64,000 nucleotides of DNA from Candidatus Kapaibacterium sp. (GTDB taxonomy: Bacteria; Bacteroidota; Ignavibacteria; Kapaibacteriales; UBA2268), in NCBI GenBank assembly GCA_963665665.1, contig OY762428.1, positions 1,824,001 through 1,888,000 on the forward strand, read 5' to 3'. Positions within the stretch are counted from its first letter, which is position 1; each line of letters begins with the position of its first letter. This document shows, in pieces, positions 49,772 through 55,178 of the stretch. The notes beneath the pieces were generated by a model, which worked only from the letters and a program-made list of their open reading frames with translations, did not search any database and was not told where the DNA came from. The position numbers were made by a program, and so were the translations under genes.

Positions 49772-49896
49772 GCAACAATTCGGTTACACAATTTCAAATA
49801 AGAAAATTCTTAAGATAATTTTTAATATCTTTATTAAATTCTCGTATCTTACGAGAATTTTTATTATAAATTGAAATTATCAATAGTCAGGATTTT

Positions 49897-52485
49897 ATGA
49901 GTTTTCTGAAGAATATTTTCCGAAAAGAAGAAACCGAACCGGCAAGAACAATAGATTCTGCCGCACTTTGGAATATTCAGAAAAAATTCAGGAATTTCCA
50001 CGCGATACTGGACAACAACAGCGAATCCTTAAGGATAATGAGCGATATGGAGGAAAAGACCCACGGGGATTACCTTTTCGATATGAATTACATTGAAAAA
50101 TCACTTGTTGACCTTAGAAATTGCGTACAGGATATCCTTGAAAACCTAATGCTCCTGGGGGGCGAAGAGTATTATAGCCTTGTGGAAAAAACAAGAGAAA
50201 TAAACGAGGAAGTTGAACATCTTCTGAAGAATCAGTATCTTATTCCAAAATCTGATTTTACGATCAATTTTTTCGGGCTGACACATGACAAAATCGATAT
50301 GATAGGCTCGAAAAACGCTCAGCTCAGCGAGGTGAAAACAAAACTGGGCATACAGACTCCTGCGGGATTTGCAATTACTACATGGGCATACAAACATTTC
50401 CTGAATGAAAACAAAGTCGATGAGCTGATTATGAATAAGCTCCGCGACGTTGATATAAAAAATTATGAGGACCTTGTTAAAGTCAGCAGTGAGATAAGGC
50501 AGGCCATAAGCAAAACAAAAGTTCCTGATGATCTTGCAGAAGCTATCAAAAATTCATATAGCGAGTTAATTCAGAATACCGGCGATGAAATGGTTTCCAT
50601 GCGTTCAAGCGCGCTTGGGGAAGATTCGCAGCTGACATTTGCAGGGCAGTATGCTACTTACCTGAATGTAAAAGAAGAAGAGGTAATTGACAGATACCGC
50701 GATGTTATTGCAAGTAAATTTACTCCAAGGGCTATTTACTACCTACTGAGCCATTCCCTGCTTAAAAGCGAGCTGGCGATGAGCGTTGGATGTGTGGAAA
50801 TGATCGATGCCGGAAAAAGCGGCGTAATTTATACCCGCGACCCGGTTACCCCGGATGACGGAACCTTGCTGATACATTCGATTTACGGCCTTGGCAAGCA
50901 CCTTGTTGATGGCACGATTACACCGGACAGAATAAAAGTATCCCGTGATAATGGGAAATTGATTGATATTGCCATTTCAGACAAACCGGATATGCTCGTA
51001 ACAAGAGAAGACGGGGGTATTGAAAAAGTCAGGCTATCCAACAGGCTAAGGAAGACTCTTTCCCTGAGCAATGAAGAAATTGGAATACTTACTTACCTTG
51101 CACATAAAATTGAAGAACACTATGGCAAGCCCCTTGATATAGAATGGGCAATCGACAGAGAGGGCGAGCCCTTTATATTACAGATAAGGCCATTGCAGGT
51201 AATGAATTCACGTCCGGGAGATGCAGGCAGCTATGATTCCGGAAATCTGAAAAAACTTGCATCGGGCGGCATTACTGTTTGCCCCGGTGGTGGTATCGGC
51301 AGAATTTACCGCGTTACGAGTTCCAGCGATTTCGTGGATATGCCAGACAATGCGGTAATTGTTGCACCACATACATTCCCTAATATGATAGCTGTAATGA
51401 ATAAAACATCTGCAATTATTGCTGTTGAAGGCAGTTCGGCAAGCCACACAGCTACAATTGCCAGGGAATACCGAATCCCGACAATTGTTGGAATGCATGG
51501 TGTGGAAAATCTTAAAGACGGCGAAATTGTTACCGTTGACGCTACTAATAAAGCGATTTTCAAGGGAACACATTCAGATATTTTGCTCGCAGTGAAGCCT
51601 GATTTTGATTATTTCAAAGATGACCCGCTGTTTGATATTCTTAAGAAAGTTCTTACGAAAATATCCCCGTTGAACCTGATCAACCCGAATGATCCTTCTT
51701 TCAAACCATCGAATTGTATTACTTTTCATGATATACTCAGGTATGCCCATCAGAAAGCAATGAAGGAAATGTTCGAGAGCGCAGGCAAAGCCGACAGTGA
51801 ATCTATTGGTATAAAAATGAAAAGCAGTATACCGTTGGATGTATATATTATTTATATCGACCGCGATCCCGCAGAAATAGTTGCACAAAAACATGTTGAT
51901 GAAAACGAAATCGGTTCGGTTCCAATGGAAGCATTCTGGTTAGGTGTAAAAGAAATCGGCCTTCCAAAATGCCCTAAACCAGATAATCCCTACGCACACA
52001 TATCAATTTCCGCAACTAATAAAGTAACTCACACACATAAGGATTTTTCAAAAAACAGTTTTGCTATTCTTGGCAAGGAGTTTATGATCCTGAGCCTGAA
52101 AATGGGTTATCATTTTTCAACTGTGGAAGCCATGTGCAGCGATAAAATATCAAAAAATTACATCAAACTGCAATTTAAGGAAGGCGGGGCCTCTCTGGAC
52201 AGAAGAGCAAGAAGGATACGCCTTATAACAACCATTTTGGATGAAATGGGATTTAATAACAAGGGAATGGAAGATTTTCTCGATTCATCAATTATAAATA
52301 TTTCAAAGGAATCGGCAATCGAGAAGGTCAGGATGCTTGGGATGCTCTCAATATTAACCAAACAACTTGACATGACACTTGTTAATGATTCAATAACAAA
52401 CTGGTATATAAACGAGATAAGAATAAAAATGGGATTACCCCGCAAAGATATTAAAAAGTACAACTCTGAAAATGGAGCCAATTGA
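49897..52485 (+). CDS. PEP synthase/PPDK-like protein: ATP-grasp plus phospho-His swivel domain, atypical C-terminus
   Basis: IGSKNAQL, MRSSA..EDS...FAGQY, SGVIYTRDP, DIEWA and LQIRP; phosphocarrier SHTATIARE; no recognisable C-terminal PEP/pyruvate TIM-barrel motifs. Confidence 0.88.
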   Translation: MSFLKNIFRKEETEPARTIDSAALWNIQKKFRNFHAILDNNSESLRIMSDMEEKTHGDYLFDMNYIEKSLVDLRNCVQDILENLMLLGGEEYYSLVEKTREINEEVEHLLKNQYLIPKSDFTINFFGLTHDKIDMIGSKNAQLSEVKTKLGIQTPAGFAITTWAYKHFLNENKVDELIMNKLRDVDIKNYEDLVKVSSEIRQAISKTKVPDDLAEAIKNSYSELIQNTGDEMVSMRSSALGEDSQLTFAGQYATYLNVKEEEVIDRYRDVIASKFTPRAIYYLLSHSLLKSELAMSVGCVEMIDAGKSGVIYTRDPVTPDDGTLLIHSIYGLGKHLVDGTITPDRIKVSRDNGKLIDIAISDKPDMLVTREDGGIEKVRLSNRLRKTLSLSNEEIGILTYLAHKIEEHYGKPLDIEWAIDREGEPFILQIRPLQVMNSRPGDAGSYDSGNLKKLASGGITVCPGGGIGRIYRVTSSSDFVDMPDNAVIVAPHTFPNMIAVMNKTSAIIAVEGSSASHTATIAREYRIPTIVGMHGVENLKDGEIVTVDATNKAIFKGTHSDILLAVKPDFDYFKDDPLFDILKKVLTKISPLNLINPNDPSFKPSNCITFHDILRYAHQKAMKEMFESAGKADSESIGIKMKSSIPLDVYIIYIDRDPAEIVAQKHVDENEIGSVPMEAFWLGVKEIGLPKCPKPDNPYAHISISATNKVTHTHKDFSKNSFAILGKEFMILSLKMGYHFSTVEAMCSDKISKNYIKLQFKEGGASLDRRARRIRLITTILDEMGFNNKGMEDFLDSSIINISKESAIEKVRMLGMLSILTKQLDMTLVNDSITNWYINEIRIKMGLPRKDIKKYNSENGAN

Positions 52486-53030
52486 TGAAACAAAGTATTT
52501 TAGTAGTTGATGACGATACACACATGCTAAGGCTGGTTGAAAAGATCGTTCACGAGAAAACGCTCCACAGGGTTGCTACAACTAACAATTCTCTGGAAGT
52601 GCCGAATATGCTGAAAGATAAAACCTATGATGTGATTCTGACTGACCTGAGAATGCCTGGTATGGACGGAATGGATATCCTGAAATGGACTGTTGAAAAC
52701 AAGCGATTTGAGCAAGTGATTATGATGACGGCATTTGGAACCCTGGAAACAGCTGTTGAAGCAATGACTCACGGAATTTTTGATTATATTATTAAGCCTT
52801 TCAAGAAAGAAGAAATAATTTTCAGCCTTGAAAGGGCAATGATGTTCCAGAAAACAAAAAGAAAATATATGCATTTAAGTAAAATTTGTAACAACAAAAG
52901 TTATAAAGAAGCATTGAATTCATTCCACATGGAATATATATCCAGGTTAATTGAAAAATATCCCAATACCGAAGATGCTATTAATGAATCCGGTATAGAC
53001 CCGGAATTATTGAAAAAATATATTGATTAA
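52485..53030 (+). CDS. Response regulator (REC plus short helical, Fis-like tail; no AAA+ domain)
   Basis: ILVVDDD, TDLRMPGMDG, MTAFG and IIKPF; TGATG overlap with the upstream stop. Confidence 0.92.
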   Translation: MKQSILVVDDDTHMLRLVEKIVHEKTLHRVATTNNSLEVPNMLKDKTYDVILTDLRMPGMDGMDILKWTVENKRFEQVIMMTAFGTLETAVEAMTHGIFDYIIKPFKKEEIIFSLERAMMFQKTKRKYMHLSKICNNKSYKEALNSFHMEYISRLIEKYPNTEDAINESGIDPELLKKYID

Positions 53031-53102
53031 GGTTTGTTTTAATTAGTAGGTCCGGAGCAAAAAGATAAAAATTCAGACACATTTTTTATAAGGAGTTTTA
53101 TC

Positions 53103-53639
53103 ATGAAAACAGCAAACGCGGAAGGCCTGATGATACCTTTAGATAGTTATCCTCATATTCCATATTGGTTTACTATCAGAGAATGCATCGCCTTGCTGCA
53201 CCACTCGGAATTAGAAATTAACGGAAAAAAATCCCTTGCAAGGGCTGTTCTCGTGTTCGACGAAGAATATAAGCTGCTTGGAATGGTCAGGAGGCGCGAT
53301 ATTCTAAGAGGCCTTGAGTCCGTTGATTTCCTTAATAAAGAACATAATTCAGAGAAAATGCTCTTTGAAATTGATCCGGATCCAAACTTACTGGAAGTTT
53401 CAGCCGAGCCTCTGATAAGGAAAATCAAAGAAAAAGCAGAAACAACAGTTGGTGAAATCATGGTGCCCGTTAAAGCGACAGTAAACCATGACGACCATTT
53501 AATTAAAATTATCTATGAGATCAGCGAGTATCAGCACGGCATGATTGCCGTTATGGAAGAAGATGTTGTTGTTGGTGTGATTAGAACTGTAGAGATCATG
53601 GATGAAATAAGAAAGATTTTGGGAATTGATCATTCTTAA
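53103..53639 (+). CDS. CBS domain-containing protein
   Basis: LVFDEEYKLLGMVRRRDIL and VGEIM.P...V/VVGVIRTVEI CBS pair; AGGAG RBS. Confidence 0.85.
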   Translation: MKTANAEGLMIPLDSYPHIPYWFTIRECIALLHHSELEINGKKSLARAVLVFDEEYKLLGMVRRRDILRGLESVDFLNKEHNSEKMLFEIDPDPNLLEVSAEPLIRKIKEKAETTVGEIMVPVKATVNHDDHLIKIIYEISEYQHGMIAVMEEDVVVGVIRTVEIMDEIRKILGIDHS

Positions 53640-53651
53640 AAGGAAAATTTT

Positions 53652-55178
53652 ATGGCCGCAAATAAATATAAAAATGACCGCCATGGCTCTCTTCCACCTA
53701 TGCCGGACAGAATCAAACTTGCTAAAGAAGACAAGAAGCCGATTGACTGGAAGAGAATATTTTTCATATTTCTCGGACTCGCCCTGTTCTTTGGCGTGCA
53801 CCTTTCTCCGGAATGGACCCCGGCTATTGATCCAAACGGACAGGAATTCGTACTAACAAGGGAAGCAAAAGCTGCAATAGGAGTATTCCTTCTTGCGGCA
53901 ACCTGGTGGGTTTTTGAAGTAGTTCCGATAGGGGTAACAAGTATTGCTATTGCAATATTTCAGGTACTATTCCTTATCCGGGAACCTAAAGTTGCATTCA
54001 AGGATTTCATGGATCCCAGCGTTTGGTTTATTTTCGCATCTATTGTAGTGGGCCTGGCATTTGCCCGAACGGGGCTAACCAAAAGGCTTGCTTACAAAAT
54101 GCTTGCGCTGGTAGGCGAGAAAACCAGCATGATATATCTCGGATCATTTGTAATGGTAGCTGCATTAACACTTATTATGGCCCATACAGCTGTTGCTGCT
54201 GCCATGTTTCCGTTGCTTATGACGATATACAGCCTGTACGACCCTGAAGGCAAACAAACAAAATTTGGCAAAGGATTATTTATTGGTATGGCTTTCGTGG
54301 CCGGAGCAGGATCAATTATTACATTGTTGGGAGCTGCACGCGGAGCTGTAGCTATTGGATATTTTCAGGAAATTATTGGCAGGGATATTACATTTTTTGA
54401 ACTGTCTTATTATATGCTGCCTGTTGGCGTTGTAATGGTTGTATTATTATGGCTTTCATTTATGGTTATATATAAACCCGAAAAAGCCACAATACCCGGG
54501 TTAAGAGAAAAAGTAAAAATGCTCAGCTCTAATCTCGGACCAATGACGAGGAATGAAATTACAACTGTTGTGCTTGTGTTTTCAGCTATACTTCTGCTTA
54601 GTATGCGTTCGTTCGTTCCTGAATTCGATTTCCTGCACAAAAGCGCAGTACTGCTTGTAACCACAGTCTGCTTCTTCATTTTTAAAATCCTTACTGTTAA
54701 AGATCTTGAAGATGTCCCCTGGAACATTATTCTGCTTTTTGGCGGAGCAATGTGTATTGGTTTCTGCCTTTGGGAAACCGGCGCAGCTTCATGGATAGCC
54801 GTTAACTGGTTGTCATTATTCCAGAATGCACCGGGAACTGTTTTCATTATCGGAACGGCATTTTTTGTAATGATAATGACCAACCTTATCATGAATGTTG
54901 CCGCCATTGCCATTACGATGCCTGTTGCTCTGGTAACATGCCAGTATCTTGGAGTAGCTCCGGAAGTTGTAATATTCTCGGCACTTGTAACGGCAGGCAT
55001 GCCCTTCCTTTTCCTTATCGGCGCTGCCCCGAATGCAATTGCCTATGAAAGTAAGCAGTTTAGTTCAGGTGAATTTTTCAAAGTTGGTATTCCAATGAGT
55101 ATTCTTCTTATGGTTGTTCTATCGGTCTTTGTTTATTTTATCTGGCCGGTAATGGGAATGCCGATATTTATCGATTAA
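53652..55178 (+). CDS. SLC13/DASS family divalent anion:Na+ symporter
   Basis: WWVFEVVPIGVTS, GL.KRLA, WNIILLFGG..C.G..L.ETGAA.W and APNAIAY. Confidence 0.9.
   Translation: MAANKYKNDRHGSLPPMPDRIKLAKEDKKPIDWKRIFFIFLGLALFFGVHLSPEWTPAIDPNGQEFVLTREAKAAIGVFLLAATWWVFEVVPIGVTSIAIAIFQVLFLIREPKVAFKDFMDPSVWFIFASIVVGLAFARTGLTKRLAYKMLALVGEKTSMIYLGSFVMVAALTLIMAHTAVAAAMFPLLMTIYSLYDPEGKQTKFGKGLFIGMAFVAGAGSIITLLGAARGAVAIGYFQEIIGRDITFFELSYYMLPVGVVMVVLLWLSFMVIYKPEKATIPGLREKVKMLSSNLGPMTRNEITTVVLVFSAILLLSMRSFVPEFDFLHKSAVLLVTTVCFFIFKILTVKDLEDVPWNIILLFGGAMCIGFCLWETGAASWIAVNWLSLFQNAPGTVFIIGTAFFVMIMTNLIMNVAAIAITMPVALVTCQYLGVAPEVVIFSALVTAGMPFLFLIGAAPNAIAYESKQFSSGEFFKVGIPMSILLMVVLSVFVYFIWPVMGMPIFID

Follow-up and report, generated by a model that had tools for sequence, protein, structure and literature searches.

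Little is known about how sulfate reducers regulate the uptake of sulfate, with which a respiration of global importance begins. Clusters encoding DASS- or SulP-type sulfate transporters together with cache kinases, response regulators and CBS proteins have been described in Desulfobacteraceae and other sulfate reducers, and the main text of that study proposes that sulfate uptake is controlled by external sensing and by an internal, CBS-based level (PMC11887813, 2025). The terms phosphoenolpyruvate, PpsA and dikinase occur nowhere in that main text, while its figures or supplements may show such a gene. Here we describe a four-gene operon in a 64-kb stretch of the genome of Candidatus Kapaibacterium sp. 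(phylum Bacteroidota; contig OY762428.1, positions 1,824,001 to 1,888,000, hereafter the window), in which a phosphoenolpyruvate (PEP)-synthase-like (PPS-like) protein of the dikinase family (gene 1) is followed by a receiver protein (gene 2), a CBS-pair protein (gene 3) and a DASS/SLC13 anion:Na+ symporter (gene 4). With a probability of roughly 0.55, we consider this operon to be the kinase-less derivative of a module found in dsr-bearing anaerobes, in which a two-component-linked, CBS-partnered dikinase takes part in the uptake of sulfur oxyanions. Literature searches, with the supplements and figures of PMC11887813 outside their scope, returned no paper that ties a water dikinase or PEP synthase to CBS proteins and sulfate transporters or to receivers.

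The neighbourhoods of homologues were compared at 73 metagenome loci, where neighbouring genes were classed by BLAST against the window proteins, a cluster kinase and a cluster SulP. The orthologous set, with at least 39% identity of the PPS-like protein, comprises 55 of these loci, 50 of them informative and five on contigs that were too short. We found that the first gene downstream is a histidine kinase at 29 of the 55 loci, a CBS gene at 13 and, as in the window, the receiver directly at four; another four, with at least 3 kb available downstream, carry none of the three. The receiver follows the kinase at 25 kinase loci, that is, at all those whose contigs extend far enough, and the common full order is PPS-like gene, kinase, receiver, CBS gene and then DASS or SulP. 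All 12 intervening genes that were scanned encode dCache-PAS-HisKA-HATPase_c proteins of 713-775 amino acids (aa). At 13 of the 50 informative loci the PPS-like gene stands with the CBS gene, often also with a DASS gene, and without a receiver. The identities of the window proteins to their orthologues are 40-50% for the PPS-like protein, 42-55% for the receiver, 35-50% for the CBS protein and 50-69% for the DASS protein of gene 4. The initial annotation, which was made from the letters alone, had pointed to PPDK-like/REC/CBS/permease clusters of the Desulfobacterota type, and this was correct.

We then considered the descent of the kinase-less form. In a tree of the C-terminal domain of gene 1 (the C-domain), built from 72 rows by a quick method, the window groups with two genomes of the same family (SH-like approximate likelihood ratio test, SH-aLRT, 89) within a 53-row clade (support 100) that is dominated by the kinase-bearing form. 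Kinase-less forms with the receiver directly downstream are scattered in the tree, and at least five changes are required. On this evidence, the window operon is a derived variant that has lost its kinase. Two observations on relatives from the same family are added here. In G005 and G015, the PPS-like gene is paired with a divergent CBS gene of 147 aa. In G022, where the order is TauE, PPS-like gene, receiver and dCache kinase, the PPS-like gene (L096:6488-9132, G022:C40) is broken by a TAA between the parts encoding the phospho-His domain and the C-domain, which could reflect a pseudogene, a split gene or an assembly error.

Similar partners were found in a second phylum. Among 251 sampled Nitrospirota genomes, 87 carry the C-domain, and 40 regions were fetched. 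In the group closer to the window, 19 loci were classified, one having been dropped for a split gene. At these loci the PPS-like gene faces genes for a Cache kinase (~740 aa) and a receiver (139-146 aa), which converge on it, and it is divergent from genes for a GntR/UTRA regulator, a CBS protein and a DASS transporter. Kinase and receiver together are present within 7.5 kb of the PPS-like gene at 16 of the 19 loci, CBS at 15, DASS at 9, TauE at 9 and any transporter at 15. Because a second phylum thus has the same five parts in a changed gene order, these loci are good evidence of functional linkage. The 245-aa GntR/UTRA protein encoded between the PPS-like gene and the CBS-DASS pair (L101:12479-13219, L001:7081-7818, L076:3087-3824, L067:2846-3583) is a dedicated small-molecule-sensing transcription factor with no counterpart in the window. 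In a more remote subfamily (29-33% identity, n=20), the operon order is HAMP-kinase (~470 aa), single-domain receiver (~123 aa) and PPS-like gene; the kinase is present at 19 of 20 loci, the receiver at 16, and both within 7.5 kb at 16. Taken together, the two-component pair is the most constant partner of the whole family, and the CBS and transporter partners mark the branch that holds the window.

Gene 1 shares only part of its architecture with known dikinases. Just as had been predicted from the letters, Pfam identified the PPDK_N and PEP-utilizers domains and gave no match to PEP-utilizers_C (PF02896); residues 1-125 and 560-862 were left uncovered. In 52 aligned family members, R236, S237, S238, A239, E242 and D243 of the RSSAxGED motif, Q429, R431 and P432 of the QxRP motif, and G512, H517, A519 and R523 of the phospho-His domain are all invariant, which confirms the ATP-grasp motifs and the phosphocarrier His that the initial annotation had recognized. 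No HisKA, DHp, Hpt or HATPase_c domain matched gene 1 in Pfam at E<=0.1, and the 52 sequences share no conserved His in the N-terminal helical bundle (the N-bundle). Sequence matches in the PDB stop near residue 563, and the PEP synthase models TIGR01418 and NF005057 align to residues 122-559 only and score below cut-off (343.4 against 598, and 338.1 against 739.75). The rifampin phosphotransferase model NF041857 gave 227.7 bits against a cut-off of 999, over the ATP-grasp portion only; the His domain is central in gene 1, whereas it is C-terminal in the NF041857 type. The full-length AlphaFold2 (AF2) model (predicted local distance difference test, pLDDT, 84.2; predicted template modelling score, pTM, 0.62) resembles PEP synthase 2ols and also rifampin phosphotransferase, in both cases only in the ATP-grasp and His parts. 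PEP synthase, RPH, pyruvate, phosphate dikinase (PPDK) and HpeI were its structural neighbours, and 2ols, 8a8e and 9dae were the closest by both structure and sequence. Elsewhere the genome encodes a canonical PPDK (L003:691-3489, G000:C1:3979015-3981813; TIGR01828, 1330.8 bits, cut-off 843.45), and gene 1 is therefore not needed for the interconversion of PEP and pyruvate.

The two ends of gene 1 form the unusual part of the protein. The extra helical N-terminus and the C-terminal part without a barrel, both described in the initial annotation, are present, although the latter spans about 300 residues and not about 280. Modelled alone, the C-domain (pLDDT 77) is an alpha/beta fold with an antiparallel sheet and no PEP/pyruvate barrel, in agreement with the missing PF02896 match. 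It contains a conserved cluster of polar residues (H611, D612, R615, H618, H739, N754, R769-R773 and D825). A Foldseek search against the PDB returned no match at E<=0.001, a search of the ESM Atlas gave no usable match, and a Pfam scan of 41 C-domain sequences found nothing meaningful. A wide structure search (VIA) identified six chains at Z>=5 and none at Z>=8, the top match being 6k4y_M (Z 6.0, root-mean-square deviation 4.0, 101 residues aligned). Bilin reductases and coproporphyrinogen oxidase scored Z 5-5.7. All of these matches are too weak to name the fold.

We also identified stand-alone proteins of 386-393 aa that contain only an N-bundle and a C-domain and lack the kinase parts (L077:5535-6716, L078:3455-4636, L079:7176-8357, L080:3849-5030, L017:4374-5534). 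Their genes often adjoin a CBS gene and a full-length PPS-like gene. The 393-aa protein of L077 aligns with residues 27-108 of gene 1 (E 2e-10), and the near-invariant R615 and H618 are absent from the stand-alone copies in the C-domain alignment. Given such proteins, the two unexplained ends of gene 1 constitute a single autonomous module that is interrupted by the ATP-grasp and His domains. Longer PPS-like forms also occur, namely P0198 (1078 aa) and Nitrospirota open frames of 1060-1089 aa, whose extra ~200-230 C-terminal residues have no Pfam match; CBS and REC were considered for the ~230 additional residues of the 1078-aa form and dropped, as hhalign gave probabilities of only 0.06 and 0.15.

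A search with gene 1 gave 730 matches, of which the best 120 are 835-895 aa long, carry the same two Pfam domains and are 43-54% identical to gene 1 over 95-100% of its length. The names attached to a few of the homologues point to Desulfococcaceae, Deltaproteobacteria, Zixibacteria, Binataceae and CSSED10-310. Searched against 1.84 billion proteins, a C-domain profile matched 1474 representatives at E<=1e-3, of which 745 reached E<=1e-30. Literature searches found no mention of this family. Gene 1 belongs to a large, widespread and uncharacterised branch within the dikinase superfamily, a branch whose acceptor module is new.

We next consider the CBS protein. Gene 3 encodes a CBS pair (PF00571 in two stretches, E 2.7e-8). 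A complex of the C-domain (41-row alignment A2) and the CBS protein (28-row alignment A4) was predicted in three runs with three controls. The median ipSAE was 0.73 (runs 0.74, 0.73 and 0.73), and the best of the three controls reached 0.00; of 157 solved complexes, 116 attained this level, as did 2 of 215 mismatched pairs, counts that are approximate owing to the custom alignments. The runs share at least 70% of their contacts, and the pLDDT of the partner is at least 75. In the modelled interface, the CBS side contributes the invariant P17, P20 and W22 within N-terminal residues 14-23, and the C-domain side contributes Q823 and D825, with a conserved TKQLDM helix and glycine-rich turns. The prediction supports docking of the CBS protein by the C-domain of gene 1.

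Gene 2 is a receiver by its Pfam match (PF00072, E 3.2e-27), and its residues D9, D10, D54, T82 and K104 are invariant in 17 orthologues, so the phosphorylation pocket that the initial annotation called intact is indeed so. No Trans_reg_C or other winged-helix output matched in gene 2. Its tail is conserved (EPYxxAxxAFxxEYVRxL...RSGL) and has a faint look of a Fis-type helix-turn-helix; this reading was not adopted, as HTH_8 matched in one of the 17 orthologues (E 0.0087) and not in the window protein. DNA binding by gene 2 is doubtful, given that single HTH_8 match and the Nitrospirota orthologues of 139-146 aa, in which most of the tail is absent.

Two clusters elsewhere in the genome bear on the receiver. 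One contains a CBS gene, a fusion of REC and DASS in a single 677-aa open reading frame (L141:4625-6658, G000:C1:4291624-4293657; REC 4-114, DASS 237-674), a REC gene (161 aa) and a dCache kinase (562 aa), and no PPS-like gene. On the basis of this fusion, we argue that receivers act directly on proteins or transporters in such modules. The other cluster (L140:5925-12507, G000:C1:3091924-3098506) holds a SulP that is 54% identical to the SulP of PPS-like clusters, followed on the 3' side by five genes, which encode in turn a 401-aa Cytidylate_kin2-REC protein, a 572-aa dCache kinase, a 119-aa receiver, a 220-aa HisKA-only protein and a 142-aa receiver; this cluster looks like a multi-step relay beside a sulfate-type permease. 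The kinase cores of the two dCache kinases are the best matches in the genome to the cluster kinase, which makes them the obvious candidates for phosphorylating the orphan receiver in trans. A search of the genome with the Cache sensor part of one cluster kinase had given no match, and since Pfam later found both dCache kinases, that blank result meant divergence and not absence.

The sulfur link comes from the transporters and from the genomes. Gene 4 scores 212.2 against the DASS model TIGR00785 (cut-off 198.6) and matches PF00939 at E 7.9e-48. The transporters beside the module belong to three unrelated families: DASS, SulP (with a STAS domain) and TauE/SafE. SulP stands in for DASS at five loci, and TauE lies directly upstream of the PPS-like gene in G017, G022, L052 and L061. 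Sulfur oxyanions are most obviously the substrate that the three families share. From this alternation, from the dsr genomes and from the assignments made in the main text of PMC11887813, sulfate is the substrate that the context suggests for gene 4. Set against the published sulfate-uptake cluster, the window has the DASS transporter, the CBS protein, the response regulator and the dsr genome, and lacks the Cache kinase. In G017 (L095:5413-10447, G017:C3) a 901-aa PPS-like gene is preceded by genes for an LMW-phosphatase/ArsC-like protein, a DsrE-like protein, a 101-aa open reading frame and TauE/SafE. The available text of a proteome study of Dissulfuribacter thermophilus reports that a 'PEP synthase', DITHS69_1988, adjoins the TauE/SafE-type genes 1989 and 1990, that the abundance of all three rises under thiosulfate disproportionation, and that a 'sulfur deprivation response regulator', 1984, lies nearby (PMC13490349). 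DITHS69_1988 may belong to the gene 1 family. RAST gives the name that 1984 bears to SLC13-like permeases.

In the genome of the window, sat, aprA, dsrA and dsrB are clustered at G000:C1:3203525-3211733, with scores above the cut-offs where applicable (aprA 881 bits, cut-off 641.75; dsrA 548 bits, cut-off 392.85). Of 24 same-family genomes, 10 have a dsrA match, whereas none was found in 16 genomes from other families of the order, and dissimilatory sulfur metabolism itself is therefore patchy in this lineage. The C-domain was found in 4 of the 24 same-family genomes, namely in 4 of the 10 with dsrA and in none of the 14 without. It was not detected in the same 16 genomes outside the family or in 300 other genomes sampled from the phylum. 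Similarly, among the Nitrospirota genomes, 82 of those with the C-domain have a dsrA match and 5 do not, while for genomes in which the C-domain was not found the numbers are 49 and 115. Since related genomes are not independent samples, this overlap shows an association with lifestyle or clade, not causation. A horizontal origin of the module, possibly together with the dsr lifestyle, is plausible from its patchy distribution (0 of 300 in the phylum, 4 of 24 in the family). This is in line with the horizontal acquisition proposed earlier; the analysis named no donor. The lack of a base-composition anomaly and the grouping with two same-family relatives indicate that any transfer was old.

The four-gene operon is real. 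Open reading frame calls together with Pfam and NCBIfam confirm the PPS-like, receiver, CBS and SLC13 genes of the initial annotation, all co-directional on the + strand at 49897-55178 (Table 1). The TGATG overlap noted between genes 1 and 2 was also found, with TGA at 52483-52485 and ATG at 52485-52487. Gene 2 is 181 aa long from this ATG, or 182 aa from an alternative TTG at 52482, so that the gap between genes 1 and 2 is -1 (or -4) nt; the gaps are 72 nt between genes 2 and 3 and 12 nt between genes 3 and 4. A hairpin upstream is consistent with gene 1 opening a transcription unit; the consensus scan that identified it found 3 terminator-like sites against 5.6 expected. The GC content of the operon (0.375-0.421) is similar to that of the remainder of the window. 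As reported earlier, the window contains no histidine kinase: none of the 109 HATPase_c matches in the genome, and none of the 82 genome matches to a cluster kinase, falls within 1824001-1888000, and the closest histidine-kinase matches lie outside, at 1802621 and 1894611.

Table 1. Features of the operon, in positions of the window
Feature	Position	Strand	Remarks
Terminator-like hairpin	49836-49860	+	Between the upstream gene (end 49771) and gene 1; consensus scan only
Gene 1, PEP-synthase-like dikinase-family protein, 862 aa	49897-52485	+	N-bundle, ATP-grasp, phospho-His swivel domain, novel C-domain
Gene 1, N-terminal three-helix bundle, residues 21-111	49957-50229	+	AF2 helices 21-55, 63-88, 90-111
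Gene 1, PPDK_N ATP-grasp domain, residues 134-439	50296-51213	+	Pfam PF01326, E 1.7e-90
Gene 1, PEP-utilizers mobile phospho-His domain, residues 483-551	51343-51549	+	Pfam PF00391, E 1.1e-19
Gene 1, His517 codon	51445-51447	+	SHTATIARE motif
Gene 1, C-terminal alpha/beta domain, residues ~560-850	51574-52446	+	Non-TIM-barrel, no Pfam family, predicted CBS-binding surface
Gene 2, receiver protein	52485-53030	+	REC at residues 5-112 and conserved ~65-aa tail, no recognised output domain
Gene 3, CBS-pair protein, 178 aa	53103-53639	+	Invariant N-terminal motif YPHxPYWFT
Gene 4, DASS/SLC13 anion:Na+ symporter, 508 aa	53652-55178	+	Pfam and NCBIfam

Based on the above, we propose the following scheme. 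The full ancestral module would consist of a Cache kinase, a short receiver, a PPS-like dikinase, a CBS-pair protein and a transporter of the DASS, SulP or TauE type. Judged by homology and by its invariant motifs, gene 1 probably takes phosphate from ATP onto His517. Its N-bundle and C-domain would replace the pyruvate barrel and, according to the models, dock the CBS protein, and the phosphoryl group would be handed to an acceptor held by this module together with the CBS protein. As the acceptor, we tentatively favour, at somewhat less than even odds, a small anion or a metabolite that is connected with the substrate of the transporter; a protein (the CBS protein, the transporter or the receiver) is possible and would come second, and a complete lack of productive phosphoryl transfer seems rather unlikely. 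In the ancestral module, the Cache kinase would phosphorylate the receiver, which most likely has the enzyme or transporter as its protein-level target and does not work as a classical DNA-binding regulator. For the receiver of the window, the phosphodonor would be a kinase encoded elsewhere, for example the dCache kinase of the SulP cluster or that of the REC-DASS cluster. Overall, the operon may serve to tune the uptake or handling of sulfate-type anions to external supply and to internal adenylate status. Of the two directions raised in the initial annotation, a phosphorelay to the receiver and an enzyme acting on or with the transported anion with the CBS protein sensing adenylates, the latter is the better supported.

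Several observations weigh against this scheme. The tie to transport is not universal, as CBS genes are found at 0 of 20 and a transporter (TauE) at only 7 of 20 loci of the distant Nitrospirota subfamily. The four metagenome loci without kinase, CBS or receiver gene lack the partners despite at least 3 kb of downstream sequence. The cluster with the REC-DASS fusion does without a PPS-like gene, and the enzyme is therefore dispensable for such modules. The association with dsr is confounded by phylogeny, since the carriers may be one clade; moreover, the five carriers without a dsrA match, including G335, and the 49 of 131 dsrA-positive Nitrospirota genomes without the C-domain do not follow it. 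The sulfate specificity of the DASS protein is assumed from its family and from the assignment of one paper in other organisms, and the DASS and SulP families also carry dicarboxylates. The three unrelated transporter families argue against a single direct protein-protein gate, and the clusters do not contain downstream enzymes for using a phosphorylated product. Finally, the score of the C-domain-CBS complex expresses model confidence only.

The relay in the initial annotation would have His517 autophosphorylate and pass its phosphate to Asp54 of the receiver, so that gene 1 serves as an alternative cytoplasmic kinase sensing energy or anions; in a variant of equal standing, the PPS-like and CBS proteins would sense adenylate or sulfur-anion status and the phospho-His, as a non-kinase donor, would supply the receiver Asp directly, beside the Cache kinase in most organisms and alone in the kinase-less operons. 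The receiver is indeed the most constant neighbour (40 of 69 metagenome loci, 18 of 19 and 16 of 20 Nitrospirota loci), genes 1 and 2 are translationally coupled in the window through TGATG, an intact receiver is retained in the kinase-less clusters (the window, L018, L036, L041 and L062), the receiver has no recognised DNA-binding output beyond the one HTH_8 match in 17, and enzymes for a phosphorylated metabolite are missing from the clusters. However, a canonical kinase accompanies the receiver in most relatives (29 against 4 metagenome loci; 16 of 19 and 16 of 20 Nitrospirota loci), and a substitute is not needed there. A cognate kinase in homologous clusters had been named in the initial annotation as speaking against gene 1 as a substitute sensor kinase, and the proposal fails on this point, with a kinase first downstream at 29 of the 50 informative loci. 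In addition, 13 of the 50 informative loci have PPS-like and CBS genes without any receiver, gene 1 carries no HisKA, Hpt or HATPase_c domain and no conserved His in its N-bundle, no case of a PEP-utilizer His domain passing its phosphate to a receiver Asp came up in the literature searches, and any of the 109 HATPase_c matches of the genome could serve the receiver. We regard both forms of the relay as quite improbable.

Gene 1 might instead be a catabolic or assimilatory dikinase of the ordinary kind that acts, by analogy with phenylphosphate synthase, on an organic anion taken up by the cell, for example a dicarboxylate or an aromatic acid, with a stimulatory CBS protein, a two-component system that controls transcription only, and no tie to sulfur. 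To our knowledge, the characterised enzymes with ATP-grasp and swivelling His domains all phosphorylate small molecules or glucans. The dicarboxylate carriers among DASS and SulP, the GntR/UTRA regulators of the Nitrospirota clusters, which are typical of catabolic operons, and the pocket-like polar cluster of the C-domain would fit such an enzyme too. Yet follow-on catabolic genes are absent from the clusters, the alternating DASS, SulP and TauE transporters most obviously share sulfur oxyanions, DsrE and TauE neighbours occur, C-domain carriers are strongly enriched among dsrA-positive genomes, and published clusters of a similar type are assigned to sulfate uptake in the main text of PMC11887813; an organic-anion dikinase is clearly unlikely. 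That the window cluster is a decaying remnant, non-functional after the loss of its kinase, is very improbable. The cognate kinase gene is missing with no spacer left, the same-family relative G022 has a TAA-broken PPS-like gene, and the cluster is rare in the phylum; against decay, the four reading frames are intact with all catalytic and phospho-acceptor residues conserved, the identities to orthologues are even across the PPS-like, REC, CBS and DASS genes, kinase-less forms arise repeatedly and independently, and the tight gene overlaps are preserved.

To the layer of Cache kinase, response regulator and CBS protein that has been proposed in print, a sulfur-oxyanion module with a CBS-partnered dikinase would add a phospho-His enzyme that is widespread, driven by ATP and equipped with an acceptor module not described before. 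Should the enzyme gate sulfur oxyanions or handle them chemically, dissimilatory sulfur metabolism would gain a new step of control or activation, and the dikinase superfamily a new class of acceptor. As a minimal kinase-less version of four genes from a complete genome, the window is convenient for reconstitution.

Among known systems, classical two-component His-Asp transfer resembles the locus in that the gene of a phospho-His protein adjoins, and is translationally coupled with, that of a receiver with an intact pocket; it differs in that the phospho-His of gene 1 lies on a PEP-utilizer swivel domain and not on a DHp or Hpt helix, and in that the relatives carry a true kinase. In gene 1, as in PEP synthase and PPDK, PPDK_N precedes the swivelling phospho-His domain and the catalytic motifs are invariant, whereas gene 1 lacks the TIM barrel, has a three-helix N-bundle and a novel C-domain of ~300 aa, scores below both PEP synthase cut-offs and is found beside a separate canonical PPDK in its genome. 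PpsABC, rifampin phosphotransferase, CreHI and HpeI likewise reuse the ATP-grasp and His module with a different acceptor-binding part, but in these non-pyruvate dikinases the domain order and the acceptor domain are unrelated to those of gene 1, whose context is transport and signalling and not aromatic catabolism or antibiotic resistance. The gamma subunit of phenylphosphate synthase contains CBS domains. As the available text of PMC6114531 describes it, phenylphosphate synthase is a split PEP-synthase-like enzyme whose accessory 24-kDa gamma subunit stimulates the reaction and has AcuB as its best homologue in Desulfatiglans, and the CBS protein is similarly the predicted partner of gene 1. 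The clusters in the main text of PMC11887813 agree with the gene 1 family clusters in the types of transporter, CBS protein, Cache kinase and response regulator that they contain; the regulators in that paper are called WalR type, whereas gene 2 has no winged-helix output and the window has no kinase.

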